A DNA stretch of 64,000 nucleotides from a bacterium (GCA_021810905.1 JAJZQH010000003.1:1897-65896); one strand, 5' to 3'. Shown: positions 4,179 to 54,260, counted from the first letter of the stretch. Notes: generated from the sequence alone by a model not told the origin. Translations and numbers: made by a program.

Positions 4179-5113
4179 CATAATGCGCCGCCCTTCGTGA
4201 CAGAAGTCTTCCCCTCACGATGCACGTTTGCAAAGATTTCGCCGATGATACCGAGGACTGAAGCGATGGTGATGTTGGAGACATCCAACGATGGGGCGAA
4301 TTCCACGATATCGAAGGCGCGCACTGAAATCGGAAGCGACTCGATCATCTTGAGGAGCACGCTTACCGGGATTCCGGCGGCCACGGGCGTTCCCGTTCCC
4401 GGAGCACAGGATGGATCGAGCACATCCACGTCGACCGACACATACAGATGATCGACACGGCGGGAGATATCTTCAACGCCTCGTCGAAATCGCTCCAGCG
4501 CACCAGTATCGAAGAGAAGTTCGTCTGAGGGCAGCTCGTGAATGCCCGTCCGCTTGATATACGGCATCTCCTCCTGTTCATACGCGCGCGTTCCCACCAG
4601 GAGGCAGTCGGTCGGCCTGATCTCCGTCGTTTCAATCGCGCGACGCAGCGCCGATCCATGTGAGAAAGAAAAACCATGATACGTATCGAGTAGATCGGGA
4701 TGCGCGTCGAACCAGATAACACCCGTCCTCCCTCGCTTCGCCACAGCCTTGAGGATAGGATGGGTAACGGAGTGATCGCCCCCTATGGACACAAGCGTTG
4801 AATCCGTCCCGTCAAGGACGGCGGAACAGCTGCATTCTATGGCGTCGAATGTCTTCATCGCATCGAAGGTGGAAACGTCAACATCTCCAATGTCGAGGAT
4901 CCGTATTGACGACAGGTCATCGCCGCGACGGGATGTCGATTTCAACCTCCCAGTCATGGATCGCACTCGCCCGGGCGCAAAAGCGGCGCCACGCTGGCCG
5001 CCGGCTCCTCCGTCGAATGGTATCCCGAGGATGAGCACGTCGGCATCGCCAGGGGAATTCGCTTTTGTCCCCACTCCGTTCCATGCGCCATATCCTTCGG
5101 ATTTTAAAAACAT
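4178..5113 (-). CDS. Arginase-fold ureohydrolase (agmatinase / guanidino-acid hydrolase-like)
   Basis: ORF 4178..5206. Arginase-family metal-binding motifs GGDHS, DAHPD and SVDVDVLDP. Start moved to ATG 5113 (MFLKSEGYGAWNG), preceded by AGGAGG. Its stop overlaps the NRPS start (ATGA). Confidence 0.8.
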   Translation of the reverse strand: MFLKSEGYGAWNGVGTKANSPGDADVLILGIPFDGGAGGQRGAAFAPGRVRSMTGRLKSTSRRGDDLSSIRILDIGDVDVSTFDAMKTFDAIECSCSAVLDGTDSTLVSIGGDHSVTHPILKAVAKRGRTGVIWFDAHPDLLDTYHGFSFSHGSALRRAIETTEIRPTDCLLVGTRAYEQEEMPYIKRTGIHELPSDELLFDTGALERFRRGVEDISRRVDHLYVSVDVDVLDPSCAPGTGTPVAAGIPVSVLLKMIESLPISVRAFDIVEFAPSLDVSNITIASVLGIIGEIFANVHREGKTSVTKGGAL

Positions 5114-5238
5114 AACATTCCTCCTATTCGAGAGCCCGTAACCCCGGACATTGCATGCAGGTCGAGTGTCCCAAAAAACAGCCCCGACAAAACGCTGGCT
5201 GGTCATGCATCATCCATGGGCACACAGTGATATTGCGC

Positions 5239-5823
5239 CTAGGGAATCGGCACAACGTTGAACTGGAACTGGGTCCCATCGACGATCTTCCGTTCAATGC
5301 TGTCAAGATCGCTCACGACTGCACAATAAGACGCCAGCCAATCAAGCGCCCTCTGTTTGTCGCTGTCACGGGTGGAGACCACTCCGTCGGACGGTACGAT
5401 CACATGATAGCCCCGGAAATAAGCATCCGCCGCCGTCGTTTGCACACATATCTGCGTCTGCATACCTGTGATGACGATGGTATCGACACCCAGCACCTTA
5501 AGACGTTCGTCGAGTTTCGTCTCGAAGAACCCGCTATCCTTATTCTTCTCAACGATGATATCACGATCATCGAGGTAGTCCTGTGCTATCATTGCGCCCT
5601 TTGTACCGCGCAGGACGGGCAACACGCCGTTATGAAGCTCCGCGTGGTTGTCGTCCTCGTCATAGATCAGCTGAAGATGGACGATTGGAATATTCATCTC
5701 GCGCATTTTTTTGAGAAAGCGGATCATCGAAGGAGCGAATCGCTCGACCTGCTTGCGGCGCTCTTCATTCTTGTTAATGAGGTCATACTGCAGATCGTTG
5801 GTTAAAATTGCATATCGCGCCAT
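5239..5823 (-). CDS. Isochorismatase-family cysteine hydrolase
   Basis: ORF 5239..5895. Start moved to ATG 5823 (MARYAILTNDLQ) behind GGGGAG. Family-typical segment DTIVITGMQTQICVQTTAADA carries the nucleophile Cys. Confidence 0.75.
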   Translation of the reverse strand: MARYAILTNDLQYDLINKNEERRKQVERFAPSMIRFLKKMREMNIPIVHLQLIYDEDDNHAELHNGVLPVLRGTKGAMIAQDYLDDRDIIVEKNKDSGFFETKLDERLKVLGVDTIVITGMQTQICVQTTAADAYFRGYHVIVPSDGVVSTRDSDKQRALDWLASYCAVVSDLDSIERKIVDGTQFQFNVVPIP

Positions 5824-5878
5824 TTTGGACTCCCCTAAATATTGAACAACAAATTCGTGCACAATAGCTTCCATTCGC

Positions 5879-7294
5879 TCAGATGGACCGACCAATATTC
5901 CTCTTCATCATTGTTGAAAATCGCGAAAGTCCATCCTTCCAGATTTCGAAAATCTCCTGCTCGTCGAGATATTCTGTTCTGGTCACGGATGGCTGATCTT
6001 CTCGCCAGCTGTCAAAGTTTTCGCCAATAATCGTCAAATGATAGCGTTCGAAATTATGGTAGAGGTCGGTCCCCGGATAAGGCGTCGTGATATAGTACTC
6101 CACGATATCCGCGAGCCCCTCTTCGAGCAGCTTTTCGGCATAGGCGATCGTCCGGTAGGCGGTATCCCTCGATTCGCCAGGCAGCCCAACCATCCAGTAA
6201 AGGAGGACATTCAGCCCGGCATCCTTGGCCATTTTACAGGATGCTCTGATCTGCTCGACTCGAATTCCCTTCCGGATGAGATCGAGTAATTCCTGGTTCG
6301 CACTCTCCGCGCCGTACTTGATGAGCCGGCAATTGCCCTCATGCATCTTTCGGAGGATTCGGGGGGTCACAAGATCGCAACGCGTCTGAGCGATCCATCG
6401 AAAACCCCGGTTCCGCATCTCCATTCCAAACTCCTCCACATAGGAGGGATTCGTCGTGAATGATTCATCGCCGACATAAAGCAGATCTATGTCAAAATAT
6501 TTTCGTAGAAGTTCCGCCTGCGTTACGGTTCGCTCCATACTCTGATACAACGGTTTTCTCCCCTTCCAGATCGTGTCCGCACAATACGCACAGTTATAGG
6601 TACAGCCCCTCGACGTATAGATCCGGGCGAAAGGAATCTGACCGCGATAGATGTCGTTCGGTATGAGATGATATGCCGGCATAGGGAGACGATCGGATAT
6701 GATCGCTTCCTTGCTGAATGGATTTACATTGATCTCACCATCACGTTTCCACGAGATTCCCGGGATACCTCTAAGATCTCCGCCATCATGGAGGCACCGT
6801 AATAGATCTGGCAGGATGAATTCGCCCTCCCCTCTCACAACGATATCGATATCCTCCTCTTCCAGGCATGAGCGATCCGTATAGGACACATGTGGTCCGC
6901 CAAGAACAACGAAGACATCTCGGCCCAGCACTTTTTTGACCAATCGGGAAACGCGAACGGCAACGCTGAAACTATTGGTAAAAGGCGACATGCCAACCAC
7001 ACGAGATGTGACCTGGCTGAGTTCCCTCGCAATGGCATCATAGTCGATGTCGCATCCGGAATAAGATGTGAGATCCAGGACATCTGCGGTCAAGCCTTCG
7101 TGCTCAAGGGTTCCCCCCAACGCGGCAATCCAAAGCGGGAGCTCCTTGATGTCGTAGATCGGGGCTTTTACGAATTTTCCACCGATTCTCCGTTCAAAGA
7201 AATCCCAGTAGACATCATAAAACGCGCTCTCCTCTTTATGAATGAACGGTTTCGCGATCAGCGGAAGCTGGATAAACGTAAAATCACTGTTCAT
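5879..7294 (-). CDS. B12-binding-domain radical SAM enzyme
   Basis: ORF 5879..7294. N-terminal Rossmann/cobalamin-binding-like part (VVGMSPFTNSF...VVLGGPHVS). Radical SAM cluster motif CTYNCAYC (CxxxCxxC). ATGA overlap with the hypF stop at 7291-7294. Confidence 0.8.
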   Translation of the reverse strand: MNSDFTFIQLPLIAKPFIHKEESAFYDVYWDFFERRIGGKFVKAPIYDIKELPLWIAALGGTLEHEGLTADVLDLTSYSGCDIDYDAIARELSQVTSRVVGMSPFTNSFSVAVRVSRLVKKVLGRDVFVVLGGPHVSYTDRSCLEEEDIDIVVRGEGEFILPDLLRCLHDGGDLRGIPGISWKRDGEINVNPFSKEAIISDRLPMPAYHLIPNDIYRGQIPFARIYTSRGCTYNCAYCADTIWKGRKPLYQSMERTVTQAELLRKYFDIDLLYVGDESFTTNPSYVEEFGMEMRNRGFRWIAQTRCDLVTPRILRKMHEGNCRLIKYGAESANQELLDLIRKGIRVEQIRASCKMAKDAGLNVLLYWMVGLPGESRDTAYRTIAYAEKLLEEGLADIVEYYITTPYPGTDLYHNFERYHLTIIGENFDSWREDQPSVTRTEYLDEQEIFEIWKDGLSRFSTMMKRNIGRSI

Positions 7295-9630
7295 GATATT
7301 TCCTCGTCTCCAATCGATGAGCGGCCAAACTGGAGACCCGCGATGATCGCCTGTCCAAGCGACACACCGCCGTCATTGCTCGGAACCCTCGAATGCCTAT
7401 AAACGGAGAACCCGTCGTGCGTGAGAGAGCGGTAACAATGCGAGAGAAGAAATTCATTCATGAAGACACCGCCGCTCAAGACGACCTTCGCAAGCCCATG
7501 CGTGAGCCGGATGCGATGACAAACGTCTCTGACAATATCTACGATCGTTTGATGAAAACGACGGCTGATAACGCCAAGCGAGATGCCACCTCGCACGAGG
7601 AGATCCACGATCTCACGAATCATCGGCCGCATATCAATCATCCCAGAGGATGTTGATTCCATGAAGTCATAAGAGAACGATGTAAATTCATCCTCTCCGT
7701 CCGCCATGATGTATTCGAGTGCCATGGCCGCATGCCCTTCATGGGAAATTGACTCGATCACGCCGATAAGCGCGGAAACAGCATCAAACAAGCGGCCCAT
7801 GCTCGACGTTTGTGGAGAATTGATCCCTTGTTTCGCCATACGCAGAAGGAGATCCAGTTCGTCGCCCTGTCGTTCTCGGATAATCGGCAGGGGGAGTTCA
7901 CGAAGCACGTGCTCATCGTAGATCTGTGAAAGAATACCTATCGCCGTTCTATAGGGATGCTGCACAGCTTTATCTCCACCCGGAAGCGGAAAAGGCCGCA
8001 GGCAGGCAAAACGCTGAAATTGTTCATAACCTCCGACAAGGAACTCACCGCCCCAGATGCTGCCATCGGCGCCGTATCCGGCTCCATCGAAGATGACGCC
8101 GATCACGTCCTCATCCAGGCCATGCTCGCACATACATGAAGCCATATGGGCATGATGATGTTGAACCCTGACCACAGGAAGATGTTCCATTTCCTCGGCA
8201 TAGGCGCTCGTCAGAAAATCCGGATGGAGATCGCATGCTACAAGCTCAGGCGCAATATCATAGCTCGCCCTGATATGATCGATGATCTCACGGAGGAACC
8301 GGTAGATATATTGATTATTGATATTTCCTATATGTTGACTGACGAACATCCTCCTGTCCTTTGTCAGGCATATCGTGTTCTTCAGATCTGCACCGAGCGC
8401 CAACACGGAAGGAAGGGTACGATGGCACATGATCGGATGGGGGGCATATCCGCGCGCTCGGCGGAGTATCTCAACATGATGGCCATCCCCATTCGAGCCC
8501 ATACATCTGACGATCGAATCGTCGATTCTGATATGGATATTGCGGTCATGCGAAAGAAAAAAATCTGCGACGTCTTCGAGCTTCGTCAAGGCATCGTCGT
8601 CATCGCTGATGATCGGCTCATCAACCGCATTGCCGCTTGTGGCCACAAGTGCCGGAAAATGACCCCGGAGCAAGAGATAATGAAGGGGTGTGGAAGCAAG
8701 CATGACTCCGTAGCGACGGTTATCCGGGGCTACAGCCTGGCAAATGAGATCGTTCTTCTTCTTTCGGAGCAAAACGATGGGACGTTGTGGGGAAGCAAGC
8801 AACTGCCGTTCATCCTCCGAAACATGCGCAAAACAACGTACCTTGTCGATTTCGTCGGACATCATCGCAAAAGGCTTGAGGCTGCGCCGCTTCCTCCTGC
8901 GCAACTCGTTGACGGCGTCTTCCTGCGACGGATCAACCATTAAATGATAGCCGCCTAGCCCCTTGACGGCGATAATTAACCCTTGCCGCAGAAAATTCAC
9001 GGTTTCAAGGATGGGATCGCGGGTATCTACCGGCTCGCCATCTCGCCGCTTGAGAAAGAGCTGCGGTCCGCACTTCCAGCACGCATTGGGCTCTGCGTGA
9101 AATCGTCGATCCGACATATCCTCATATTCATCCATGCATTCCTCGCACATCCGGAACACATGCATCGTCGTATTGCACCGATCGTAGGGAATGTCCTTGA
9201 TGATGGAGTATCGAGGCCCACAATTCGTGCAGTTGATGAAAGGGTAACGATGCCGCCGGTCGGCGGGGTCGAAGAGTTCAGACAAACACTCGGAACAGAT
9301 GCTGGCGTCGGGAGAGATGAGTGTTTCGCGTGAGGCATCTTGCCTGCTCTCCAGGATGCGAAACTCCTTATGGAGGCCAGTCGCCTTTTCGACTGAGATG
9401 AGCTTGATCTCATCAACGACGGCCATGGACGGCGCATCGAATTTGAGCTCCTGAATGAATTTCGCGCTTTCCTCCTGCGGCCCTTCAATTTCGACAACCA
9501 CGCCCCGTGAATTGTTGAGGACCCATCCGCGAAGATCGTATTTCTTGGCGACGCGATAGACAAAGGGCCTGAATCCTACTCCCTGTACGATCCCGCTGAT
9601 CAGATATCGGCGCACTTCAAACATGGCCAT
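7291..9630 (-). CDS. hypF: Carbamoyltransferase HypF (full-length architecture)
   Basis: ORF 7291..9630. Acylphosphatase-like N-terminus ISGIVQGVGFRPFVYR. Two zinc-finger pairs (CSECLSEL..CTNCGPRYSI and CEECMDEY..CWKCGPQL). YrdC-like AVKGLGGYHLMVD. Kae1-like C-terminal half with VQHHHAHMASC. GGAGG RBS upstream. Confidence 0.9.
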   Translation of the reverse strand: MAMFEVRRYLISGIVQGVGFRPFVYRVAKKYDLRGWVLNNSRGVVVEIEGPQEESAKFIQELKFDAPSMAVVDEIKLISVEKATGLHKEFRILESRQDASRETLISPDASICSECLSELFDPADRRHRYPFINCTNCGPRYSIIKDIPYDRCNTTMHVFRMCEECMDEYEDMSDRRFHAEPNACWKCGPQLFLKRRDGEPVDTRDPILETVNFLRQGLIIAVKGLGGYHLMVDPSQEDAVNELRRRKRRSLKPFAMMSDEIDKVRCFAHVSEDERQLLASPQRPIVLLRKKKNDLICQAVAPDNRRYGVMLASTPLHYLLLRGHFPALVATSGNAVDEPIISDDDDALTKLEDVADFFLSHDRNIHIRIDDSIVRCMGSNGDGHHVEILRRARGYAPHPIMCHRTLPSVLALGADLKNTICLTKDRRMFVSQHIGNINNQYIYRFLREIIDHIRASYDIAPELVACDLHPDFLTSAYAEEMEHLPVVRVQHHHAHMASCMCEHGLDEDVIGVIFDGAGYGADGSIWGGEFLVGGYEQFQRFACLRPFPLPGGDKAVQHPYRTAIGILSQIYDEHVLRELPLPIIRERQGDELDLLLRMAKQGINSPQTSSMGRLFDAVSALIGVIESISHEGHAAMALEYIMADGEDEFTSFSYDFMESTSSGMIDMRPMIREIVDLLVRGGISLGVISRRFHQTIVDIVRDVCHRIRLTHGLAKVVLSGGVFMNEFLLSHCYRSLTHDGFSVYRHSRVPSNDGGVSLGQAIIAGLQFGRSSIGDEEIS

Positions 9631-15929: not shown

Positions 15930-16340
15930 TTATTTCACGTCCAGTAACTCCACCTCGAAGATCAGATTCGCATTCGGCGGTATGGCGGAACCTGCGCCGC
16001 GCGCGCCATAGCCGAGGTTAGCGGGTATCATGAGCGTGCGCTTTCCGCCCACCTTCATTCCGGCAACGCCCTCATCCCAGCCCTTGATCACCATGCCCGC
16101 GCCGAGTGAAAATGAAAACGGCTTGCCATGATCGAGGGAACTGTCGAACTTCTTGCCCTTCTTGCCGTTCTCGTCGAGCCAGCCGGTGTAGTTGACGAAG
16201 ACTGTCTTTCCGGCCGTGGCCACGGTACCCGTGCCCACCTTCACGTCCTCATAAGAGAGGCCGCTCTTGGTCTTCGTGACGCCCGCAAAGCAGACTGCCG
16301 AGATCGCCATCAACGCCACCGTCATCATCGCGATTTTCAT
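15930..16340 (-). CDS. FKBP-type peptidyl-prolyl cis-trans isomerase, secreted
   Basis: ORF 15930..16379. Start moved to ATG 16340 (MKIAMMTVALMAI) behind AAGGGGGA. FKBP core VNYTGWL..G..FDSS...PFSFSLG.G.VIKGWDEG..GMKVGGKR.L.IP..LGYG. Confidence 0.88.
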   Translation of the reverse strand: MKIAMMTVALMAISAVCFAGVTKTKSGLSYEDVKVGTGTVATAGKTVFVNYTGWLDENGKKGKKFDSSLDHGKPFSFSLGAGMVIKGWDEGVAGMKVGGKRTLMIPANLGYGARGAGSAIPPNANLIFEVELLDVK

Positions 16341-16385
16341 TTGTCCCCCTTTTCTCAAGTTAAAGGAATTCATCATCACAGAGAG

Positions 16386-17618
16386 TCAGCATCCGACCGG
16401 ACATCCGCATACTCCCGGCACGCTCGTGCCTGGCACACTCGTGTCGGGCGGGCATTGCGAATTCGAGGTACAGACCCCGCCAGTGTCGCAGTAGCAGGTA
16501 CAGTCTGTTCCGCCGGTGTTGCCTCCTGTATTGCCGCCGCCCGTGTTTCCGCCTCCACTGCCCGTGGATGCGGGGCATGCCCCCCAGGTGCAACCTGTAC
16601 CGCACTGTTTTGTGCCATCAGGATAGCAGGGCATGTACGAGCCCGGCGTGCACTGATAATCGTTCGGGCACGTGGGAAGTATTGCACCAGGACTGACGAC
16701 GCCGCTCTGTTGTAACGAGCCTGGTGAGATGTAAGTGTTTGCCATAGTGACGAGCCCGCTGCCGTCGTTCATGACCTGGACGGCGCTGTCGAGCGTGTTG
16801 CTGGATACATCAAGCGCCGCGCTCACGCAGGACCCCGCATCTCCGAGCGTGCATTTAAAGACGTCGACTCCCGTAAGAATGCTTCCGGCGTCCCCGAGAT
16901 TTTCGAGCCACGTCTCGTCGCCCATCACCACAGTTGCAGTCGTCACGATGACGCCGGCGCACGGAAGCGCCATTGCGCCGAGGGAGACTGTCGTGGCTAC
17001 ACCGCAGGCGCCTACGGAAATGCCCAGCCCCGCAAACTTGAGCAGCTCCGCGAGGTTTTTGACGTCGGAGTCGCAGGCCGGGAAGCAGGTCGACTTGGTT
17101 GAAGCCGAACTGCTGCTGACGGCACTGGCGCCACCGGCGCCGGTAATTAAGTTCGAGGCTTCCGCGGGAACGCTAACCCTCCTGAACACTTCTACGTAAT
17201 CTGTCGGAACGTAGATCTTCGCGATATCGACCGTCCCCGCGCTCAGGTCCCAGTTGGAGAAGAGAAGGATGAAGTCGCCCATGACCGTCCTGTAAGGCAG
17301 CCCGTCGGCGCCAAAGAAAACCGCCACATTGCCGCCCGTGGCGTTGGTCCAGAGTGCGCCCACAATCTTCTCGGTGGTTCCGCTGGAACCGGGAATCGCA
17401 TTGCTCACCAGCGGGAGGAGCATCTCGCCGTCTTTGTTCACCATAATCGCGCCGAGCGAATCTTTGCTCTGCATCACGGCCGCGACCTCGGGCGTATTTT
17501 CGTTGCTGCCGCTCGTACTCCCAGCGCTCCCGCTTCCGCTCGTTCCGCTGCCTACCGATATGCATGAAACGACAGACGGAAGAAAGCAGAGCATCATCAT
17601 AACCAGTATTTTTCTCAT
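16386..17618 (-). CDS. Cys-rich lipoprotein, unknown function (paralog of 52619..53983)
   Basis: ORF 16386..17618. Lipobox LPSVVSC and AGGAGGG RBS. Gly/Asn/Thr linker, then a Cys-dense C-terminus. It shares a near-identical 49-aa core with the 52619..53983 protein. Confidence 0.75.
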   Translation of the reverse strand: MRKILVMMMLCFLPSVVSCISVGSGTSGSGSAGSTSGSNENTPEVAAVMQSKDSLGAIMVNKDGEMLLPLVSNAIPGSSGTTEKIVGALWTNATGGNVAVFFGADGLPYRTVMGDFILLFSNWDLSAGTVDIAKIYVPTDYVEVFRRVSVPAEASNLITGAGGASAVSSSSASTKSTCFPACDSDVKNLAELLKFAGLGISVGACGVATTVSLGAMALPCAGVIVTTATVVMGDETWLENLGDAGSILTGVDVFKCTLGDAGSCVSAALDVSSNTLDSAVQVMNDGSGLVTMANTYISPGSLQQSGVVSPGAILPTCPNDYQCTPGSYMPCYPDGTKQCGTGCTWGACPASTGSGGGNTGGGNTGGNTGGTDCTCYCDTGGVCTSNSQCPPDTSVPGTSVPGVCGCPVGC

Positions 17619-17712
17619 AATCCCTCCTGCACGTTATGCGGCGCCAGATAGCTCATGTCGCAACCATTGTCTAGGTCTGCTTTCAACGGAATCGCAAAAA
17701 AAACGGCCCAAA

Positions 17713-19077
17713 CTATCTCTGCTTCGCGAACATCACCGGCACCTGTATGCCGCCGCCGCTCACGTTCACCTTGAAGCCGCGGTTGGTGGCGCGCGTGATG
17801 AATCCGCCCACGTTGAAGTTGGTGAAGCGCGCACCGTCCCAGTCGTAGTGGACGTAGACGCCGACGTCTGCAATCACGCGCCTGGGTCTGGAGAGAAAAC
17901 CTGCCACGTCAATCGTATTGAGATCGATGCGATCCTGGAGAACCCAGTACTTGTGATCTTTATGAAGTATGCGCGCGAGCCGCGCTGGAATTTTTTTCCC
18001 AACAAATACGTGCTCGCCTCCCATGCCATCAGCGTACTTGAGCACGAGCCTTGAAGGACGATGGAGCGCTTCTTCTTCGTTGCCTCTCAACAATCTCGCA
18101 GGAACGATCGTATCCGCGAGCCTCTCCGCGCGCGCCTCGCCTATGAGGCGCCTGAGAATATTTTTATCCTCGAGCACGGTGAGGATCGTCTTTGGCGCTA
18201 CGAGTCCAGTGATGAACGGACTGTAGTGAGGTGTCTCGGACCGCACGAGGTCGCGGAAGAATCCCGGGGCCTCTTTCAAATCTTTGAGTTCGAAGCTGTA
18301 CGAGAGCTGGAATGCATCCGGAGGCCTTGTATTTGCTCCGATCTGCAGCTTGCCATCCCTGAGACGGACGCATTCGCGCGAGAGGAGTTTGCAATCTTCA
18401 TCGAGCTTCACCTTGAAGGCGGATGGAGAGACGAGCCGCATGTCGAGTCCGATCGCGCGCGCCTTTTTAAGGATCACCTCCTCTTCCCAGTTGTACAGCT
18501 CGTACTGGAAGCGCACGAAACGCCTGCCGAGCCTTCGCATGTTGCGCACTTCGCTCGCGGCGGTATCGAGGCATATCACCTCGCGCCTAAGTATCGGAAA
18601 GAGCTTGAGGATCGTCTCTTGAATGAACGACGAGCGGCCGGTTCCGTCGAAGCCGATATCGTTCACCTCCATGAGCTTCGGCGGATTATCGGGACTGGGC
18701 TTTCCCACCACCGCCATATCGAATCGCAGGCTGCCGATGATGCGCCGCTTTCTGTGCTTGAGCACGCCGAGCTCGCGGATCATATACTCCGAGATAGGCG
18801 TTGGCGGCAGGAGTTCCCTGATCTCGTCGGAAGGCAGCGAGAGAATCCGCATGAGCGATTCGGTGATATCGCGACACGTGCGCCTTATGACCGGAAGATA
18901 CGACGCGGGAAGGATGCGCGGGAGCGCGGAACAATCGTGATCGTTGATGCCGATGAGCCCGGAATCCGCGAACTCGTTCCACAGCTCGGCCTTGAGAGCT
19001 CTGAGGTCGCGCTCCCTGAAGAGCCTCGCGAGCTTCGATGGAAGGGCCTCGTGAAAATGACGGTGTCTTGGAAACAT
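17713..19077 (-). CDS. Circularly permuted ATP-grasp-like (glutathionylspermidine-synthase-like) protein
   Basis: ORF 17713..19077. An E-x-N type motif (KLMEVNDIGFDG) lies in the N-terminal third. A K/G-rich nucleotide-loop-like segment (LVLKYADGMGGEHVFVG) lies near the C-terminus, the reverse of classical ATP-grasp order. Assignment is by motif order only. Confidence 0.45.
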   Translation of the reverse strand: MFPRHRHFHEALPSKLARLFRERDLRALKAELWNEFADSGLIGINDHDCSALPRILPASYLPVIRRTCRDITESLMRILSLPSDEIRELLPPTPISEYMIRELGVLKHRKRRIIGSLRFDMAVVGKPSPDNPPKLMEVNDIGFDGTGRSSFIQETILKLFPILRREVICLDTAASEVRNMRRLGRRFVRFQYELYNWEEEVILKKARAIGLDMRLVSPSAFKVKLDEDCKLLSRECVRLRDGKLQIGANTRPPDAFQLSYSFELKDLKEAPGFFRDLVRSETPHYSPFITGLVAPKTILTVLEDKNILRRLIGEARAERLADTIVPARLLRGNEEEALHRPSRLVLKYADGMGGEHVFVGKKIPARLARILHKDHKYWVLQDRIDLNTIDVAGFLSRPRRVIADVGVYVHYDWDGARFTNFNVGGFITRATNRGFKVNVSGGGIQVPVMFAKQR

Positions 19078-19174
19078 GGTGCAACGTATATCTCAACGGC
19101 GGAAATTTTTCACGGATTATCATAATATCAAAACGGGGCGAGTCACCAAGGTCATCCGCCGAGCGATTGCCTCG

Positions 19175-21808
19175 CTACAGCAACTCTCTCAACACGGAAG
19201 CATATGGACCTTTCGCTATCTTTTCGAGGGCCGAATGCGAGAGCCGCCGGATCCTTTCTTTGCTCAAGCCGAGCATGCCTCCCACTTCCTCATGCGTATG
19301 ACCTGCGAGGTGGCATTGGAGCACTATGATTTTTTCCCTGTCGCTCAATCCCGATCCCTCAATCGCCATGTCGAGTTTCGTGATGGCATCGCTTCGAAGC
19401 GCGAGATGATCCGGCCCGACCTCTCCCAAATCGGTCACCCGGCCTTCCAACGTGAAATCACCATCTTCTTCGTCCAGCGGCGCAGAGAAGGAGACTTCCC
19501 GCCTTGCTGCCGCTCCCCGCTGTATCATCATTTTAAAGAGCGTCAACGAGAGCGAACGCTTGACATAGGTCTCAAAACTCGCGATCGAGGGATCATAGCG
19601 TTGCGCCAGCTTGTGGAGCTCAATCCTTCCTGCCTGGAGAAGCGCCCCAAAGCTCATGTTCGCCCCGCCAAACCTTGTCATCACGGAAGAAGCAATGCCC
19701 GCCATCAACGGCTCATAAAAAAAGATCAGGTGATCGAGTGCCTGCCGGTCGCCGGACTTGGCCATCCAGAGGAGAAGCATCTTCTCACGCTGATCCAGAA
19801 ATATTCCGCCGCCGCTCCTTCGCTTTGTCGTTATCGTCGAATAGACGTCCATCCCATAGTGCGAAAACGCCCAATCGATCATCCGCCCTTCACTTTCTGA
19901 ACCGCGCCACAGATTGCGGAGATAACCATAGAGGCCCATCAATCCCGAGTTCCTCTCTCCAACATGCGAGCGAAAATCTCCCTGCACGATGCCAGCTGCA
20001 TCCTTTGCGCCCGCTTCGCACATCATTCCAGCGAGATAAAAAGCAATGACCGAATCAGGCACGCGGCGCCAGCCCGAGAGCTTCCCGCCTCTCCGCTCAG
20101 CCAGACGAAGCTGCAGCGCAAATGGCATTTCTTCGGCTGCGGATACACCACAATAATCCAGGATTTTATCGACTACCACTCTCGAATCGTCAGGTGTCTT
20201 CCTCAGACTAAAATGCGTGTAGAGACCTTTCAGCGATTGACCGATCTCCGGGACGACCGTACTCTCCATCTCGCGACAGGAAACAAACCTAACGTGAGGC
20301 AGGCCATTGAGTTCCTGCACCCTCTCCATAAGGCGCAGAATCGTCGCGAGGGGAACCTTCTCCCACGGCCAATTCCTGTTATATCGCAAACAGAGGCACT
20401 GTTGTTCGTAGGAAAGATCTTCAAACCTCTCAACTCCGAGTTGATCGAGCATGAAATCCAGCGCAGAACCTCCGTAGCCTTCCGGAACCCTGAGCCAATA
20501 ATGTTCAAGCAAGCCTGAGAGCGTCGCGCCGAGCTCATCGAGCACGATCTCATTCAGTTTCTTACCTGGCATCGCCCTCAGATGCGGACATTTCAAACCG
20601 TTCTGCTCGGGTAAGAGTCCTCTGGCTATCTCCAGCAGTTTCACCTGCGTGGAAGCAGGCATTCTTTCCCATTTTATGAGTTCGCACTCTAGAAGACCCT
20701 TCAGCTGCACATCCCAGGGAAGGATCTCAAATGACGGAACGCCCACATCATCAAGCAGTGCATCGATTATTCTGCGGGCCTCTTTTCCCCGGTTGAGATA
20801 ATTATTATACAGTCCAATCAGTGTAGAACTGAGTTCTGGCATTTCGATGTCCCTGAAGTGGTCGAAAGTCAAAAACCTCGGATGCACAACGCCAGCCTCA
20901 TTCGCCAAGCGAAAAAGCAGATGTCGCTTAAGCTCCACGCTAATTTTATCCCAGTGGATACGCTGATAACGCAGCCCGATGAATCTCGCCTGTTCCGCCA
21001 GAGACAATTCCTCAAACCTCTGCACTCCTAAATGATCGAGCATGAAATCCACGATCCCGCCTGCACCGTGTTCGTCCGTCCACATCCGAGAATAATGTTT
21101 GTAAAGCCCTTGGCACTGCGCTTTCCATCCCGGCAACCTCATTTTGAAATGATCGAATCCCAGCAGGCGAGGATGTGGCAGGTTTTGAACCAGCGCCATC
21201 TGCTCGAGTATTCTGACCTGTGCACTGAGAGAGAGATGAGAGACATTCTTAAAGGGAGCGGAATCAACCCGCAACCGGTCGATCTCTGCCTGAATGCGCA
21301 ACTCCTCCATGGGATGATACGTGTATCGAAAGGAGCCGAGTCCGCGGGTCCCGAATTTCAGGCAGATATCAGCTATGGAGACGCTTGCCCCCTCGATCAG
21401 CGCGAGCGCCGATGCGACGAGCATCTTTGCGGGTTCGAAAGAGAGTATTCCCAGGATATGGGCGTCATGCGCGATAATGATCGCGTGAGAGGGAGAGTCA
21501 AAGCCGTGGAGTTTGAGCGCATCGCGCGTCATCGGGCTGCTCTCGTCGACAAAACGCATTGCTTGCCGATCGAGCGCCCTCCGGATCTCGGCCGGCGTCT
21601 GCCGGTGTGATCCATCTCGCTCCCCGTATTCATCCGCGGACGACGGCGTTGCAGAGTGCTCTTCGGTGTCAACGCCGCAGGATTCAAGCTCCTGGGATTC
21701 GGCGCAGGGCGGTATCTCGTCGAGGGCAGCTGTCTCTTCAGCAAGGACTAAGCTCCCCAACAGCTCCAGCTGCGAAGCGAGGTCTCCTGTAGATTGCAGC
21801 GCGGCCAT
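19175..21808 (-). CDS. Giant sigma-70-family protein: ~690-aa N-terminal extension with five ~98-aa tandem repeats plus C-terminal sigma2/sigma4 domains
   Basis: ORF 19175..21808 with AAGGGGAGG RBS. The C-terminal ~185 aa carry region 2-like (YDPSIASFETYVKRSL) and region 4 HTH-like (LSDREKIIVLQCHLAGHTHEEVGGMLGLSKERIRRLSHSALEKI) sequence. Repeat anchors GLYKHY, GLYNNY, GLLEHY, GLYTHF and GLYGYL sit at residues 234, 332, 432, 528 and 625. Confidence 0.75.
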   Translation of the reverse strand: MAALQSTGDLASQLELLGSLVLAEETAALDEIPPCAESQELESCGVDTEEHSATPSSADEYGERDGSHRQTPAEIRRALDRQAMRFVDESSPMTRDALKLHGFDSPSHAIIIAHDAHILGILSFEPAKMLVASALALIEGASVSIADICLKFGTRGLGSFRYTYHPMEELRIQAEIDRLRVDSAPFKNVSHLSLSAQVRILEQMALVQNLPHPRLLGFDHFKMRLPGWKAQCQGLYKHYSRMWTDEHGAGGIVDFMLDHLGVQRFEELSLAEQARFIGLRYQRIHWDKISVELKRHLLFRLANEAGVVHPRFLTFDHFRDIEMPELSSTLIGLYNNYLNRGKEARRIIDALLDDVGVPSFEILPWDVQLKGLLECELIKWERMPASTQVKLLEIARGLLPEQNGLKCPHLRAMPGKKLNEIVLDELGATLSGLLEHYWLRVPEGYGGSALDFMLDQLGVERFEDLSYEQQCLCLRYNRNWPWEKVPLATILRLMERVQELNGLPHVRFVSCREMESTVVPEIGQSLKGLYTHFSLRKTPDDSRVVVDKILDYCGVSAAEEMPFALQLRLAERRGGKLSGWRRVPDSVIAFYLAGMMCEAGAKDAAGIVQGDFRSHVGERNSGLMGLYGYLRNLWRGSESEGRMIDWAFSHYGMDVYSTITTKRRSGGGIFLDQREKMLLLWMAKSGDRQALDHLIFFYEPLMAGIASSVMTRFGGANMSFGALLQAGRIELHKLAQRYDPSIASFETYVKRSLSLTLFKMMIQRGAAARREVSFSAPLDEEDGDFTLEGRVTDLGEVGPDHLALRSDAITKLDMAIEGSGLSDREKIIVLQCHLAGHTHEEVGGMLGLSKERIRRLSHSALEKIAKGPYASVLRELL

Positions 21809-21882
21809 GCCTCCCCTTATACGACGCCGCGGAGATATTCAACTACCCATTAAAAATTTCCCGTGCGACCGGTAGGAATTTT

Positions 21883-23403
21883 TCACGGATTATCGGAGCG
21901 CCGTCGTCGGAAATCCTCGAGAAATTCCGCTAGAGGCATTTTGAATTCGCCTGATCCGCCGTTCGCCATCGAGTTCCGCCACATCAATCCAGCAAGGCGC
22001 TGCTGAACGCCCTCGTCCTCTATGACGAGCGCTTCCAGGAGCAGGTTGCGACCGCCTTGCGCGCAGTTCGAGAGAATGAATAAGAGCGGGGCATCATTGC
22101 GCATTTCAAGACGTTCCCGCATCTTTCGCAGATTTGCGAGCAGCGAATTGAAAACCTTCACCGCATTCTTGTTGCCGATGAAGACAATATCGCGGTTCAT
22201 CAAACCGCCCAATCCAGGGGTTTCGCCGGTTTTCAGCCAAAGCTCAAGAGAGCAGCGAAAGCCGTGCTCCCCATAGACCGTCGCAAATCCGGGTCGCAGC
22301 TCAAAGCCCGCGTACCTCATCATCTCGAAGAGCGCTACGTGGAACCCTGGTCTCCACGTATCGTCATCAAAGACGATGAGCATGGAACCGCCTTCCGAGA
22401 TCCGCCTTTCGCATCCGCACAGGAGCTCATGCATCCTGGTGAGGTACATACGATCGAATGTGTGCAGGGGATCCATCTCCCAGTCCATCGCCTCAGGGTG
22501 TACCCACGTCACCAGATCAAAGGTCTCAAGAGAGTCGCCATCATCCGCAAGGCCCTCAATAAATCCGGATTGCACCATCCCACATCCGTCTCCGGCACGG
22601 ACCTGATGAATCTTTCCCTCAGGATCGTCCCCAAGAGCGCACTGAAACTCTTTGAGATTGATCCTGGCGCCCTCCAATTTCCAACTCAAGACATCAAATC
22701 CGATAGTCTTCACGAGACCCGGAAGCGCCAGTCTCATCCCCAAATTCTCGTACCATTTCCCCGCGCCGACCGAAAGTACGGTGCGCGCCTCACACTTCTT
22801 TCCGACTTCCTGATAGAGGAGTATTTGCGCGGTATCGTAATACAATCTTGGGACGAGTTCGTCGGCGCCTCCGCCATTATAGAAATGTTGATAGAGCCTC
22901 AGCAGATCATACCGCTGCGCAGCGACAAGCTGTTCGACCGAGAAGTGATCTCTGCTTGCAGACAGTGCCCGCGGCACTGAGTCCCTCAACTCGATATTTT
23001 TTTGAATCCATTGCGGGAGTTCAATGAGATGGTTCCCCGCAGCTTGCTGCGGGGTTTCCGCCACCATCTCCCTTGAGGGGAGAGGGAAGGGTGAGGGTGA
23101 TCGTCGATGTTGCCGGTGATACCCCGCGGCTTGCCGCGGGGAGCATTCATTTTCCGGAGCCGACTGTTCGCGATCGCGCGTGACTGGCAGTCGCGGAGTA
23201 ACCGGCCCAGGCGCGCCACGATATTGATCGCCAACCGCCACATATTCCGACGCCACGTCATTCAGGCATATACCCTGACGGGAATCGGGCAGCGGTATAA
23301 TATCATCGTCGCAGACCACGAACACTTCCTCTGCACCGGATTCCTCTGCAGGCAGCCCGTCTGCCGCGGCCATTACATCGAGATTTAACGGTTTTACGGT
23401 CAT
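21883..23403 (-). CDS. Hypothetical protein with class-I SAM-methyltransferase-like core; the ORF reads through a MITE copy
   Basis: ORF 21883..23403. Good RBS (AGGAGA) before ATG 23403. Rossmann MTase-like motif series VLSVGAGKW / IGFDV / FDLVTWVHP / ISEGGSMLIVF. Residues ENECSPRQAAGYHRQH...AAGNHLIEL are encoded by the repeat at 23021-23151. Confidence 0.5.
   Translation of the reverse strand: MTVKPLNLDVMAAADGLPAEESGAEEVFVVCDDDIIPLPDSRQGICLNDVASEYVAVGDQYRGAPGPVTPRLPVTRDREQSAPENECSPRQAAGYHRQHRRSPSPFPLPSREMVAETPQQAAGNHLIELPQWIQKNIELRDSVPRALSASRDHFSVEQLVAAQRYDLLRLYQHFYNGGGADELVPRLYYDTAQILLYQEVGKKCEARTVLSVGAGKWYENLGMRLALPGLVKTIGFDVLSWKLEGARINLKEFQCALGDDPEGKIHQVRAGDGCGMVQSGFIEGLADDGDSLETFDLVTWVHPEAMDWEMDPLHTFDRMYLTRMHELLCGCERRISEGGSMLIVFDDDTWRPGFHVALFEMMRYAGFELRPGFATVYGEHGFRCSLELWLKTGETPGLGGLMNRDIVFIGNKNAVKVFNSLLANLRKMRERLEMRNDAPLLFILSNCAQGGRNLLLEALVIEDEGVQQRLAGLMWRNSMANGGSGEFKMPLAEFLEDFRRRRSDNP
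23021..23151 (-). mobile_element. MITE/REP-like three-hairpin element, copy a (inverted, inside ORF 21883..23403)
   Basis: The reverse complement aligns end to end with copies at 46752, 52424 and 55828 (aatgaatgctccccgcggcaagccgcgggg...ccccgcagcaagctgcgggg..catctcattga). Confidence 0.8.
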
Positions 23404-46901: not shown

Positions 46902-48059
46902 CTATCTTTCAAAGAGTGCGGTTGAAATGAGGCGATGTATATCGGTATTTTCGATCGTCCCTGACTTGAAGTGGTCCTTCATGCCAATCGCGAAGAGAGG
47001 GACGTCGACTGCGGTGTGCGCGGCCTCAAGTGAAGCGGGATCGTTCGGATCGAGGACGCGCGGATACGCAGAGTGCGGACCCGTCGCCCACGTGATGATC
47101 GGGTAAAGCCTTCCGTCTGCATCCTCGCCGGCATTTGCGAGGACGCTGCTGCCTGCCTTCGCATAGCCGTTTATCGCAAGTCCGCCGGTTTCGTGATCCG
47201 CCGTCACCAGTATCAGCGCCTTCTCCGGATCCGTCATCGAGGCACCGGCGCGGACAGCGGCGTCGAACTCGATGGTTTCTTCAAACGCGTCGTGCGCCCG
47301 GTTATCATGTTCTGCCTGGTCGATTCGACCGCCCTCGACCATGAGGAAAAATCCTTTTGGATTTTTTGAGAGCCGTTCGATGGCGATCTTCGTCATCTCG
47401 GGGAGCGAGGGCCCTGAATATCCGGACTGCTTTCTCTCGAGCACAAATGGGATATGGCTGTCCGCGAAGCAGCCGACAACCTTTTGATCGATCGGCGCCA
47501 TCTTTATATCCCGCAGATTGTATGCCAGCGTGAAGCCCTTCCTGGTCACTTCATCCTTTGAGAAATATTTACAGCCACCTCCCATTGTCACATCGATCTC
47601 CGAGTCCAGCAGCTGGCCCGCGATTTTTTGCTCCTCGTTGCGATCAGCAACGTGTGCATAAAAACCCGCCGGCGTTGCATGGGTGATGCGAGTAGTGGTG
47701 ACGAGACCCACGGAGAGCCCCATTTTTTTTGCCTCTTCGGCTATCGTTACGAGCCTGTGATTCAGATCGCACCTGGGTCCCAGACCTAGACAACCGTTAT
47801 CGGCCTTGCTTCCGGTAGCCATAGCTGTAATTGCAGCCGCTGAGTCGGTCACCATCTTGTTGTGAGATCCTGTGCGCACGTGAGCGATGAGCGGGAGCTC
47901 ATCAATGAAGAGACCGCCGCGCCGCTCATTCTTATAAAGCCGAGTTGCAGTGATATCCGCGACGCCCATCCCGTCTCCGATGAAGAGGATGACATCTCTC
48001 GCATGAGCGGTTTGCGAGATGAGGCATGCTGCCAGCGCTATTGCAATTTTGAATTTCAT
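46902..48059 (-). CDS. phoA: Alkaline phosphatase (PhoA family), secreted
   Basis: ORF 46902..48059. Signal peptide, ILFIGDGMG, active-site VTDSAAAITAMATG and ADHETGG. Confidence 0.88.
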   Translation of the reverse strand: MKFKIAIALAACLISQTAHARDVILFIGDGMGVADITATRLYKNERRGGLFIDELPLIAHVRTGSHNKMVTDSAAAITAMATGSKADNGCLGLGPRCDLNHRLVTIAEEAKKMGLSVGLVTTTRITHATPAGFYAHVADRNEEQKIAGQLLDSEIDVTMGGGCKYFSKDEVTRKGFTLAYNLRDIKMAPIDQKVVGCFADSHIPFVLERKQSGYSGPSLPEMTKIAIERLSKNPKGFFLMVEGGRIDQAEHDNRAHDAFEETIEFDAAVRAGASMTDPEKALILVTADHETGGLAINGYAKAGSSVLANAGEDADGRLYPIITWATGPHSAYPRVLDPNDPASLEAAHTAVDVPLFAIGMKDHFKSGTIENTDIHRLISTALFER

Positions 48060-48103
48060 GGTTGTCTCCTTATCCAGTTATTATGAAATAAATATTTTGA
48101 ACG

Positions 48104-48126
48104 TGTAAAAAATTTGTAAGCGTTAA
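48104..48126 (-). promoter_or_regulatory. Pho-box-like repeats upstream of the alkaline phosphatase gene
   Basis: The minus strand reads TTAACG-CTTACA-aattt-TTTACA, 45-65 nt upstream of ATG 48059. Confidence 0.45.
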
Positions 48127-48161
48127 CTCATTGTCGCTGCCCGATCTGGCTCAATGCCGAT

Positions 48162-50009: not shown

Positions 50010-50153
50010 CGCTGCGTCCTTTCGAAAAACAAGTTGCGCTCGTGACCATGCTTTCTGTAATAATGCTCATGACCTCTCTCACCTGGCGCATTAAGCGCAG
50101 ACGTGCTTTAGGAAGTGATTCGCAATCTGTTAATTATTGGTTAGGAGCGCCGC

Positions 50154-50843: not shown

Positions 50844-50846
50844 GAG

Positions 50847-52618: not shown

Positions 52619-53983
52619 ATGAAAAGGGTCATATGCTTGCCGATAGTGCTTCTCGCCTTTGTCCTCGTTTCATGTGTCAGCACTTCAAGCGGCACCAGCA
52701 GCGACAGCGGCACCACCAGCGGAACCTCGTCCACGACGATTCCCGCCAAGGCAGCAGTACTGCACAGCACGCCTCCATTCGGCGGGATCATGGTGGCCGA
52801 CAGTGGAGAGGTGATCCTCCCATTGGTCAGCTCCGACGGCAAGACGATCACCGGCGCCATCTGGAACAGCGAGACCGGCGGCACAGTCACGGTCTATCTC
52901 GATCCTTTGACCCACCTGCCCACCAAGACCATCCTTGGAGATTTCATCTTCCTCTTCTCCAACTGGAACGCGAACGCAGGAACCGTGGACATCGCTGAGA
53001 TCTACGGGCCAGGCAACTTCGTACAGTTGTTCAGGGGTGTGAGCGTCTCCTCGCTCGCGATCGCTAACGCCAATCTGAGTTCCAAAGACATGGCCTCCAA
53101 GTCGACGTGTTTCCCGGCCTGCGACTCCGACGCCAAGAATCTCGCGGAGCTCCTCAAGTTCGCGGGGCTGGGCATATCTGTCGGCGCATGCGGCGTGGCG
53201 ACGACCGTCTCGCTTGGAGCGATGGCGCTCCCGTGCGCCGGCGTTCTCGTGAGCACGGCCATCGCCGTTGTGGATACTGATACGTGGCTGCAGAATCTCG
53301 ACGATGCGGAGAGCATTCTTTCGGTGATCGACGCAGCGCAGTGCGCAACGCTCGATGTGGAGAGCTGCATCAGCACGATCCTCGGAGGTCTGAGCGCCCT
53401 CTTCGACAACGCGAGCAAGGTCGAGACCGCATATGCAGATTTTGAAACGAACGCAGATGCGGCGCTGGCAGATCCTGCCCAGCCGAGCGGCGTCATGCCC
53501 GGAAGTGGAGCTTTGCCGATAGCGGCGACAGGCACCTATGAATGCGATCCGAACGGCTCCATGCTCTATGAACCCTGCCTCACGGGCGGGACGAAGACAT
53601 GCCAGGCCGACTTCACCTATTCCGAATGTCCGAATGCGCCTTCCAGCAGCAGCTCAGGCAGCACCGGAGGAAGTGGAGGTTCCGGCGGAAGCGGCGGCAG
53701 TGGTGGAAGCGGAGGCAGCGGTGGAGGCAGCGGCGGGGCGTGTTCCTACAGCTACGATATTCCCAGCATGAAGTGCCCTGGCGAAACCTGCGTTACGTTT
53801 GCGGCTTGTTGCTCCTCATGTTCCATCAGCTCCTGCGTATCTACTTCTGACGAGCACTGCAACGGGGCGTCCTATTATTACAAGGTGTCAGGCGACCCAA
53901 CGCATTACTCGACCAGCTCGGCGTGTCAGTTGGCAGCTAACTGTGTTTACCAGTGTTTTGGCCAGACGGCCACGTGCAACTGA
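52619..53983 (+). CDS. Cys-rich lipoprotein, unknown function (paralog of 16386..17618)
   Basis: ORF 52619..53983. Lipobox FVLVSC. (GGS)n linker. Cys-dense C-terminus. Conserved core at 53098-53245. Confidence 0.75.
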   Translation: MKRVICLPIVLLAFVLVSCVSTSSGTSSDSGTTSGTSSTTIPAKAAVLHSTPPFGGIMVADSGEVILPLVSSDGKTITGAIWNSETGGTVTVYLDPLTHLPTKTILGDFIFLFSNWNANAGTVDIAEIYGPGNFVQLFRGVSVSSLAIANANLSSKDMASKSTCFPACDSDAKNLAELLKFAGLGISVGACGVATTVSLGAMALPCAGVLVSTAIAVVDTDTWLQNLDDAESILSVIDAAQCATLDVESCISTILGGLSALFDNASKVETAYADFETNADAALADPAQPSGVMPGSGALPIAATGTYECDPNGSMLYEPCLTGGTKTCQADFTYSECPNAPSSSSSGSTGGSGGSGGSGGSGGSGGSGGGSGGACSYSYDIPSMKCPGETCVTFAACCSSCSISSCVSTSDEHCNGASYYYKVSGDPTHYSTSSACQLAANCVYQCFGQTATCN

Positions 53984-54059: not shown

Positions 54060-54260
54060 TCACTTGTCGGTAATTGACCAGGTTCCGGACGCGGGCTTGT
54101 GCTTGCCGCAGTGCGGGCATTCGTCCGCGCCGTTCCAGAATGGCTTTCCGCAGTAGGGGCACGGCTTGCGCGCGGCCTTGCAATGAGGGCAGCTCGCTGC
54201 AAGGGGATCCAGAAGTTCTCCGCAGAGGTCGCATGAAATCATGGGATCAGCGATCTTCAT
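54060..54260 (-). CDS. Small double zinc-ribbon protein
   Basis: ORF 54060..54299 trimmed to ATG 54260 (MKIADPMISCDLCGE) behind GGAGGG. Four CxxC pairs (CDLC, CPHC, CPYC, CPHC). Confidence 0.65.
   Translation of the reverse strand: MKIADPMISCDLCGELLDPLAASCPHCKAARKPCPYCGKPFWNGADECPHCGKHKPASGTWSITDK

Follow-up and report, generated by a model that had tools for sequence, protein, structure and literature searches.

A cysteine-flanked, strictly apolar hairpin in a rare, undescribed superfamily of exported cell-envelope proteins

Introduction

How can two bacterial lipoproteins that have diverged over most of their length share 49 consecutive residues almost without change? This question is raised by a stretch of bacterial DNA of 64,000 nucleotides (GCA_021810905.1, JAJZQH010000003.1:1897-65896; referred to below as the window). 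Two of its genes (A and B) encode the lipoproteins. The original prediction, made from the sequence alone, held that strong purifying selection, not recent gene conversion, had preserved the shared block, and described it as containing a membrane-helix-like stretch. In this study, the selection acting on the block, the protein family to which A and B belong and the part that the block may play in it are considered in turn.

Results and discussion

Two paralogous lipoproteins with a near-identical block

The genes and their parts, with coordinates counted from the first letter of the window, are as follows.

16386..17618, minus strand: gene A, an ORF encoding a 410-aa lipoprotein of an undescribed family
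17562..17618, minus strand: signal peptide and lipobox of A (aa 1-19, ..PSVVSC), read from the sequence
17169..17486, minus strand: antiparallel beta-domain of A (aa ~45-150), with P108, N122, V130 and D131
16950..17096, minus strand: 49-aa block of A (aa 175-223), comprising the TCFPAC pair, an amphipathic-to-apolar helix (helix 1), Cys205, an apolar loop and Pro-Cys220
16920..17036, minus strand: uncharged stretch of A, 39 residues (aa 195-233; KD 1.6-1.9), set between K194 and D234/E235 and forming the full hairpin
16728..16898, minus strand: helical region of A (aa 241-297), which includes C256 and C264 as the second conserved Cys pair
16575..16670, minus strand: four-Cys knot of A (aa 317-348; C323, C331, C339 and C348)
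16389..16505, minus strand: C-terminal 8-Cys tail of A (aa 372-410), a separately shuffled module
52619..53983, plus strand: gene B, an ORF encoding a 454-aa paralog
53099..53245, plus strand: 49-aa block of B (aa 161-209)
53159..53272, plus strand: uncharged stretch of B, 38 residues (aa 181-218)
53741..53980, plus strand: Cys-rich C-terminal tail of B (aa ~375-454), unlike that of A and aligned with the tails of P0013, P0011 and P0017

Both ORFs are as originally described, that is, collinear paralogs of moderate similarity: the proteins can be aligned across ~350 aa with an identity of ~45-48%. A tblastn search of the whole 64,000-nt window found no further paralog of either. Protein A is also called, in exactly the same form, on the NCBI MAG GCA_027327785.1 (contig DAHVYM010000026.1). 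Both ORFs open with a lipobox signal and are Cys-rich (22 Cys in total in A and 24 in B). The lipobox pattern [LVI][ASTVI][GAS]C is present in A (..PSVVSC19) as well as in B (..FVLVSC19), and lipidation is predicted for both.

The block has the sequence KSTCFPACDSD[V/A]KNLAELLKFAGLGISVGACGVATTVSLGAMALPCAGV, and the only residue at which the two proteins differ within it is V186 of A (A172 of B), as had been claimed. An identity of 48/49 in one such segment, given ~48% overall, has a binomial estimate of ~1e-14 per segment, well outside what chance would give. The roughly 20 nucleotide differences originally noted, mostly at third positions, proved to be 21, of which 20 fall in third codon positions. 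Two details of the original prediction needed correction: the coordinates of the block were right for A (16950-17096), but the start in B is 53099 and not 53098, and the block contains four cysteines (C178, C182, C205 and C220) instead of five. The label "membrane-helix-like" seems a reasonable one for its apolar stretch.

Selection on the block

Comparison of A with B (Nei-Gojobori) gave dN 0.009, dS 0.84 and omega ~0.011 for the block, dN 0.49, dS 1.68 and omega ~0.29 for the N-terminal flank, and dN 0.63, dS 1.5 and omega ~0.41 for the C-terminal flank. The dN/dS of the core, which the original prediction expected to be lower than that of the flanks, is thus lower by ~30-fold. Non-synonymous and synonymous differences stand at 1:20 in the block versus 321:170 in the flanks (Fisher p = 1.8e-8). 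The block is also kept in genes from at least four other samples (P0017, P0005, P0013 and P0002), with an identity of 84-98%. In these cross-sample pairs, pN is 0.009-0.079 in the block versus 0.13-0.41 in the flanks, while pS is 0.41-0.72 in the block versus 0.48-0.80 in the flanks (for B and P0005, 0.72 versus 0.65). Since the block is conserved between samples with its synonymous sites scrambled like those of the flanks, this pattern argues for purifying selection and not for recent gene conversion, as originally proposed. Very strong purifying selection acts on the block in the clade that holds this genome.

One observation points towards gene conversion, or concerted evolution between the paralogs, as the process that keeps the block identical: pS between A and B is 0.52 in the block, which is below both the 0.72 found at flank codons for identical residues and the simulated saturation value of 0.87 +/- 0.11. 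However, GC3 is higher in the block (0.83) than in the flanks (0.71), which can explain the lower pS. Moreover, the block dS values (0.84 for A and B, 0.93 for A and P0017, 0.59 for B and P0017) fit a gene tree in which P0017 is the ortholog of B, with no conversion after speciation. With 20 synonymous differences against one replacement since the last shared ancestor, and with a block that is equally conserved between organisms, where pS can match that of the flanks, recent conversion was rejected, and conversion in general is a very improbable explanation. Ancient conversion or a codon-level constraint may nevertheless have touched the block of A and B, but neither would create a 20:1 ratio of silent to replacement changes.

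Both blocks also lie inside long antisense ORFs, the third codon positions of which coincide with those of the sense frame.

16735-17199, plus strand: long antisense ORF opposite the block of A
53002-53535, minus strand: long antisense ORF opposite the block of B

A constraint imposed by these ORFs, or by a nucleic-acid element, would be another way of preserving the block, but it is hardly credible. Between A and B, the sense frame shows a single amino-acid change, the co-phased antisense frame shows 6 and each of the other four frames 18-21, and pN/pS is 0.14 in the antisense frame versus 0.018 in the sense frame. ORFs of this kind are found opposite the family gene at 12 loci, as expected in GC-rich genes; they were thus regarded as shadow ORFs and the antisense constraint was rejected. 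As 14% of the block nucleotides differ between A and B, no DNA or RNA element is conserved there, and no Rfam match was found in the window.

Family membership and distribution

A and B belong to a rare, undescribed superfamily of exported cell-envelope proteins. For A, B and distant relatives, no match covering the block was obtained with Pfam-A 2025, NCBIfam r20, PADLOC 2.0 or PDB sequences, and PHROGs v4 gave weak, non-specific matches only. A fold search for the block returned no significant match to a solved structure, so that the question whether it represents a well-characterised domain, as raised by the original prediction, is answered in the negative for these collections. Literature searches with motif strings returned nothing. 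The source databases label the family proteins "hypothetical protein", and curated families recognise only the partner domains of superfamily members.

A word-indexed search yielded 27 full-length relatives. An exhaustive HMMER search of 1.84 billion cluster representatives extended this to 381 superfamily clusters (counted at 50% identity) with E <= 1e-3, of which 181 reached <= 1e-10 and 42 reached <= 1e-30. Most of the distant matches span profile positions ~5-290 only, i.e. the beta-domain, the hairpin and the first helices. The close subfamily is represented by 2 loci in 185,579 species genomes, both of them in Myxococcota MAGs, and by 10 loci in 241 million metagenome records; no family member was found in viral contigs.

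A profile of the block alone missed known relatives, and its result was not read as showing that the block occurs nowhere else; its only return, P0034 (GlmS joined to the block on an 834-bp contig), is probably an assembly chimera. Six proteins with Kelch/Big_2 domains (P0028-P0033) were first taken to carry the block, but the match is to the C-terminal Cys tail of A. This 8-Cys tail recurs in these otherwise unrelated proteins with 62-78% identity, and the C-terminal Cys-rich tails are interchangeable.

Architecture and location

Each protein of the superfamily has an N-terminal anchor, the beta-domain, the hairpin, a short helical region with the second Cys pair and variable Cys-rich C-terminal modules. 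Its defining features, namely (i) the conserved residues of the beta-domain, (ii) the arrangement K/R-arm-Cys-loop-Cys-arm-D/E and (iii) a C-x7-C pair, are all present in A and B. In A and B the anchor is a lipobox; relatives have three SLH domains or other extracellular domains instead. Among 122 aligned superfamily members, 91 are compact, and 58 of these 91 carry a PROSITE-like lipobox. In the long members the core is placed before or after SLH, Big_2, DUF4214, CarboxypepD_reg, VWA+PPC, RCC1, PD40/TolB-like, BACON, Calx-beta or InlB-B-repeat domains, all of which are extracytoplasmic modules. The number of cysteines downstream of the hairpin is even in 86% of the members, which fits the formation of disulfides.

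The window also encodes a TolC-type OEP (60365-61657) that adjoins an RND pump, and the presence of such an outer-membrane factor indicates that the host is diderm. No conserved gene neighbour or operon partner of the family gene was found across 20 loci. Apparent tandem family arrays at three loci (L023, L025 and L026) were rejected as arrays of the core, since what the adjacent genes have in common is limited to the triple-SLH region at the N-terminus.

Conserved cysteines and the apolar hairpin

The alignment of 122 superfamily members was used to estimate conservation. P108, N122, V130 and D131 of the beta-domain are conserved in 93-100% of the sequences, and Cys205, Cys220, Cys256 and Cys264 in 98-99%. 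The single sequence without Cys205 also lacks Cys220, and this joint loss suggests that the two residues pair. Only the close family (~20-25% of the 122) carries the TCFPAC pair and the four-Cys knot, and in it C323, C331, C339 and C348 of the knot are invariant.

Charged residues are nearly missing from positions 195-233, which lie between K/R194 (83%) and D/E235 (95%); in the superfamily as a whole the uncharged run has a median length of 38 residues. The arms of this segment have fixed lengths (11 residues from K/R to Cys205 and ~14 from Cys220 to D/E), while the loop between the two cysteines varies from 8 to 43 residues, with modes at 13-14 and 21. The loop is ~98% apolar, with 1.2% charged residues and 0.5% N/Q/H, and consists mostly of A (28%), G (13%), V (11%), L (11%) and T (9%). 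In none of the 122 sequences does the apolar part of helix 1 show a polar face, and another strongly hydrophobic segment occurs in only 6 of them. The block is part of a conserved, Cys-flanked and strictly apolar hairpin in a family of exported proteins. The segment before Cys205 (K-FAGLGISVGA-C) fits a permissive lipobox pattern, which was treated as a coincidence because this segment is internal and, in the long relatives, far from the N-terminus.

With 28 sequences, AF2 modelling gave a pLDDT of 33-45 over the block; with 122 sequences the pLDDT was 74.8 and the pTM 0.73. In the predicted structure (residue numbers equal the full-length numbering minus 1) the beta-domain has nine antiparallel strands, with block-mean pLDDT values of 88-94 except for one block at 66. 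It is followed by a helix of 25 residues (184-208), amphipathic at first and then fully apolar (pLDDT ~91 falling to 76), an uncertain turn (209-221; pLDDT ~56), a short helix (222-228) and the helices 240-249, 260-284 and 286-296 (pLDDT 89-97 for residues ~261-310).

We tentatively propose, with a probability of about 0.4, that the block forms the first two-thirds of a disulfide-stapled apolar hairpin which projects into a hydrophobic environment and is the hallmark of the superfamily. A disulfide between Cys205 and Cys220 would staple the two arms. The hairpin would project from the domain, most likely into a membrane of the diderm envelope; candidates are the outer membrane of the cell itself and perhaps that of a target. 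Both of its charged ends would stay on the same side, which is in line with the extracytoplasmic nature of both flanking regions. The main argument for such a hairpin comes from its loop: a packed core should not allow lengths to vary so widely, and a loop exposed to solvent should not stay so strictly apolar.

Several findings speak against insertion. The hydrophobicity of the hairpin in A and B (KD 1.6-2.0) is borderline for a transmembrane segment, glycine zippers are not enriched (see below) and there is no conserved neighbourhood that would point to a pathway. The two 19-mers gave about +0.8 and -0.4 kcal/mol (hand calculation with the Wimley-White octanol scale). Borderline hydrophobicity would, however, help such a segment to escape retention in the inner membrane during export.

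The AF2 model, a compact single unit (pTM 0.73), would agree just as well with burial of the hairpin, the beta-sheet lying on one side of it and the amphipathic helices on the other. The apolar helix-loop-helix would then form the hydrophobic core of a soluble domain in the periplasm or at the cell surface, wrapped by the curved sheet and these helices, conserved by packing alone and with no role for a membrane, and the superfamily would be an ordinary new domain of unknown function. This is possible but somewhat unlikely. An inter-Cys loop of such variable length and of ~98% apolar residues is hard to fit into a fixed core, and the lack of a polar face on the apolar part of helix 1 also stands against burial. 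In addition, an ordinary core tolerates exchanges between V, I, L and A, and none of these is seen when A, B, P0013 and P0017 are compared, although their synonymous distances are long. A domain for binding lipid or lipoprotein, in which the curved beta-sheet and the hairpin would line a cavity that carries an acyl chain or lipid, as in LolA, LolB, START and YceI, is quite improbable.

Comparison with known membrane-active proteins

Toxins of the colicin and ClyA types are classically marked by an "inside-out" signature, an uncharged hairpin of ~40 residues with amphipathic helices on its flanks. An uncharged central hairpin of this length is present in A (aa 195-233) and B (aa 181-218). Like the corresponding segments of colicins and the "beta-tongue" of ClyA/Hbl/Nhe, it is rich in Ala, Gly and Val, is bracketed by charged residues and has amphipathic neighbours. 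A and B might therefore be membrane-attacking proteins resembling alpha-pore-forming toxins, in which a hairpin shielded in a soluble or tethered form would insert into a foreign membrane and the Cys-rich C-terminal modules would act as targeting heads. The junction of a conserved core with highly variable Cys-rich tails is consistent with such a role, and the hairpin of one relative (P0066) weakly matches a phage tape-measure family (E = 0.005), a similarity that is probably compositional. On the other hand, no similarity in sequence or fold to colicins or ClyA was found, nor any fold or HMM similarity to any pore-forming family. In contrast to these toxins, the present family has a beta-domain, conserved predicted disulfides and a lipid or SLH anchor, and no immunity-like gene is conserved next to it. 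The family is also absent from viral contigs and from PADLOC, and an N-terminus anchored by lipid or SLH domains suggests that the protein resides in the envelope. A toxin-like function is consequently regarded as improbable.

The glycine-zipper lipoproteins, such as SlyB, YfgH, OsmB and YiaD, carry Pfam domains of the "glycine zipper 2TM" type. By analogy, the SlyB/YfgH class of outer-membrane glycine-zipper lipoproteins may be the nearest functional counterpart of A and B. In both cases, lipobox lipoproteins of a diderm envelope join a beta-rich domain to a helical hairpin that is short, uncharged and composed largely of small residues. SlyB forms oligomeric rings in the outer membrane, and the glycine-zipper class is defined by GXXXG or [GAS]xxxGxxx[GST] repeats in membrane-embedded 2TM helices (bioRxiv 10.64898/2025.12.22.696046). 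However, the Pfam glycine-zipper models gave no match to A or B, even at E <= 1. A zipper motif was found in 27 of the 122 superfamily members versus 41 +/- 4.6 after shuffling, and GxxxG occurs 0.53 times per member versus 0.49 expected; GxxxG is present once in each of A and B, and the strict motif in neither. Given that the defining motif is not enriched and that no HMM matches, identity with the glycine-zipper class was rejected. The hairpin described here further differs from the SlyB type in being Ala-rich (21%) and in having two conserved Cys that flank an apolar loop of variable length; moreover, the beta-domain precedes the hairpin, and the proteins are ~3 times larger. If the proposed projecting hairpin is confirmed, it would constitute a second, non-homologous way of placing a helical hairpin in the outer membrane, beside the glycine zippers of the SlyB type.

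The disulfide-braced fusion loops and Gly/Ala-rich fusion peptides of viral fusion proteins offer another comparison. There, as in the present family, conservation in an otherwise variable surface protein is highest in a short apolar segment with much Gly, Ala, Val and Thr, which in the present family is braced by Cys. The string FAG...GVAT of the block was presumed, as a lead only, to resemble the fusion peptides of paramyxovirus F proteins. Searches of viral protein models gave no structural match (best BFVD hit, E = 6.8e-3, TM 0.16), and the resemblance is compositional only.

Lineage-specific conservation of the block

The near-invariance of the block is clade-specific and not family-wide. 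In the alignment of 28 family sequences no stretch is better conserved than the block (majority-residue fraction 0.72-0.76), with a segment of the beta-domain (GDFILLFSNW..TVDIAKIY; 0.73) barely behind it. For pairs of proteins with 40-45% identity in their remaining sequence, block identity has a median of 55%, and A and B, with 98%, are the extreme. A, B, P0005, P0013 and P0017 share 92-98% of the block despite an identity of 41-53% elsewhere. By contrast, the block of A is only 55-61% identical to those of P0023 and of the loci L008 and L009 (both from Myxococcota MAGs), the flanks of which are as diverged from A as are those of B.

The freeze of all faces of the hairpin in two co-resident paralogs suggests a common, tight interface. 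In the clade of A and B, every face would be held by tight packing on something that both paralogs share, either a common partner or an oligomer containing both proteins; oligomerisation as in SlyB would also explain why no face is free to vary. A more far-reaching, doubtful reading is that the superfamily represents a new class of envelope proteins, in which an Ala-rich stapled hairpin, unrelated to glycine zippers, would embed in, or attack, a membrane. A and B would then keep an identical hairpin because both enter one hetero-oligomeric ring within the membrane or bind a partner in common, and helix 1 would be the specificity surface.

Should the proposed stapled hairpin prove correct, it would give a name to an unannotated superfamily of at least 381 clusters (at 50% identity), together with an experimental handle in the form of four invariant Cys, the geometry of fixed arms and a variable loop, and the frozen block that A and B have in common. 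What sets this superfamily apart from an ordinary DUF is its apolar loop, presumably stapled and of variable length, together with the difference in block evolution from one lineage to another.

The contrasting lineage is a sub-clade anchored by SLH domains (L023c, L024, L025c and L026b), in which the pattern is reversed and block identity is 67-92% versus 91-97% for the rest of the core. Omega in the block of these proteins is 0.45-1.0 versus 0.19-0.53 in the flanks, values that are based on small numbers (for L025c and L026b, Nd = 20 and Sd = 7 in the block). The dS values within the sub-clade are mosaic, which suggests recombination among these strains. An omega of 0.45-1.0 for helix 1 in one sub-clade indicates that the precise sequence of the block is not universally essential. 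If helix 1 were a specificity surface, it would be expected to be frozen in one lineage and to diversify (omega ~1) in another, and a hairpin that is frozen or evolves at omega ~1 depending on the lineage could mark the surface that determines specificity. The changes in the SLH-anchored sub-clade cluster in helix 1, and its second arm (TLTPLIIPCTG...) is invariant.

Domain architecture of the family

The family to which the 410-aa lipoprotein gene A and its 454-aa paralog B belong consists of one conserved core (a beta-domain and an apolar, Cys-flanked hairpin, of which the near-invariant 49-aa module is a part) and interchangeable Cys-rich tails. The regions concerned are:

17169-17486, minus strand: beta-domain of A (aa 45-150), with residues near-invariant throughout the superfamily
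16389-16505, minus strand: C-terminal 8-Cys tail of A (aa 372-410; DCTCYC..CPPDTSVPGTSVPGVCGCPVGC)
53741-53980, plus strand: Cys-rich C-terminal module of B (aa ~375-454), different from that of A

The 8-Cys tail of A is an unannotated C-terminal Cys-knot module, shuffled separately, and it is always preceded by a Gly/Ser/Thr linker. Unrelated Kelch+Big_2 proteins (P0028 and P0030-P0033; 62-78% identity) and the 286-aa protein P0029 (within the same identity range) end in this same tail, which is also found in family members P0002, P0003 and P0015. P0013 has almost the same C-terminal module as B, and P0011 and P0017, the latter being the ortholog of B, share it in part.

Within the beta-domain, P108 is present in all 122 members of the superfamily alignment (122/122), while N122, V130 and D131 are retained in 114/122, 115/122 and 117/122, respectively. 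This Asn and Asp, being polar as well as conserved, could mark a functional or metal-binding site distinct from the hairpin.

Variation of the module in the SLH-anchored sub-clade

In one sub-clade, three N-terminal SLH domains replace the lipobox. Its family genes are:

L023, 5971-7962
L024, 340-2322
L025, 6056-8017
L026, 7338-9296

Here, helix 1 of the module is a hotspot of amino-acid change, with a dN/dS of 0.45-1.0 versus 0.19-0.53 in the flanks, and the module copies of L025c and L026b differ by 20 replacement and 7 silent differences (Nd = 20, Sd = 7); the second arm of the hairpin is unchanged throughout the sub-clade. Along the gene, dS varies in a mosaic fashion, suggestive of recombination.

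The family gene of L025 lies within a run of SLH-domain genes (316-8017), and the same is true of L023 and L026. The adjacent upstream gene encodes the same N-terminal triple-SLH region (80% identity), followed by an unrelated C-terminal part, and the run looks like a cassette in which cell-wall-anchored proteins have had their payloads exchanged.

Antisense reading frames and a module fragment

Both module copies are covered by long antisense ORFs:

16735-17199, plus strand: antisense ORF over the module of A
53002-53535, minus strand: antisense ORF over the module of B

Each has its third codon positions in register with those of the sense gene, and between A and B the module shows 6 amino-acid changes in the antisense frame versus 1 in the sense frame. 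These ORFs thus behave as shadow ORFs. The predicted 134-aa protein P0034, from an 834-bp ENA contig, joins a GlmS-like N-terminus to a module fragment (KIAGLGISVGLCGVATTVSLGAMAIPCAGVIV) and is most likely the product of a chimeric metagenome assembly.

Genomic neighbourhoods

A belongs to a same-strand run of genes separated by short gaps (15930-23403, minus strand), an arrangement not kept in the loci of relatives. All its genes are on the minus strand, in the order:

1: 506-aa protein, no Pfam match
2: 877-aa protein, sole match a C-terminal Sigma70_r4 HTH
3: 454-aa protein, weak ATP-grasp (GSH_synth_ATP) match
4: gene A
5: 136-aa FKBP-type PPIase, 45 bp downstream of A

A response-regulator and HAMP/HisKA-kinase pair is located 345 bp upstream of B on the same strand, preceded by a gene for an alkaline phosphatase and an unannotated gene of 615 aa (46902-52274). 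The same two-component pair occurs near P0017 in L007, and its proximity to B could reflect Pho-like regulation or merely synteny. Other genes of the window and of related loci are:

54060-55677, minus strand: 79-aa zinc-ribbon protein and 458-aa protein without Pfam match, convergent on the 3' end of B
56003-61657, minus strand: RND efflux operon (pump, membrane-fusion protein and OEP)
L007 12319-13224, L009 1220-5667 and L021 3221-7667: RND efflux operon (pump and membrane-fusion protein) near the family gene
7291-9630, minus strand: HypF carbamoyltransferase (hydrogenase maturation)
5879-7294, minus strand: B12-binding radical-SAM protein, adjoining the HypF gene

The zinc-ribbon/458-aa pair also follows B in the independent Logan contig L003. 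Two independent lineages, window/L007 and the Myxococcota-type L009/L021, have an RND operon no more than a few kb from the family gene, with an orientation that is not the same in both; since RND operons are common, this proximity may be due to chance. No Rfam match was obtained at the gathering threshold across the whole window, the GC content of which is 53-61%.
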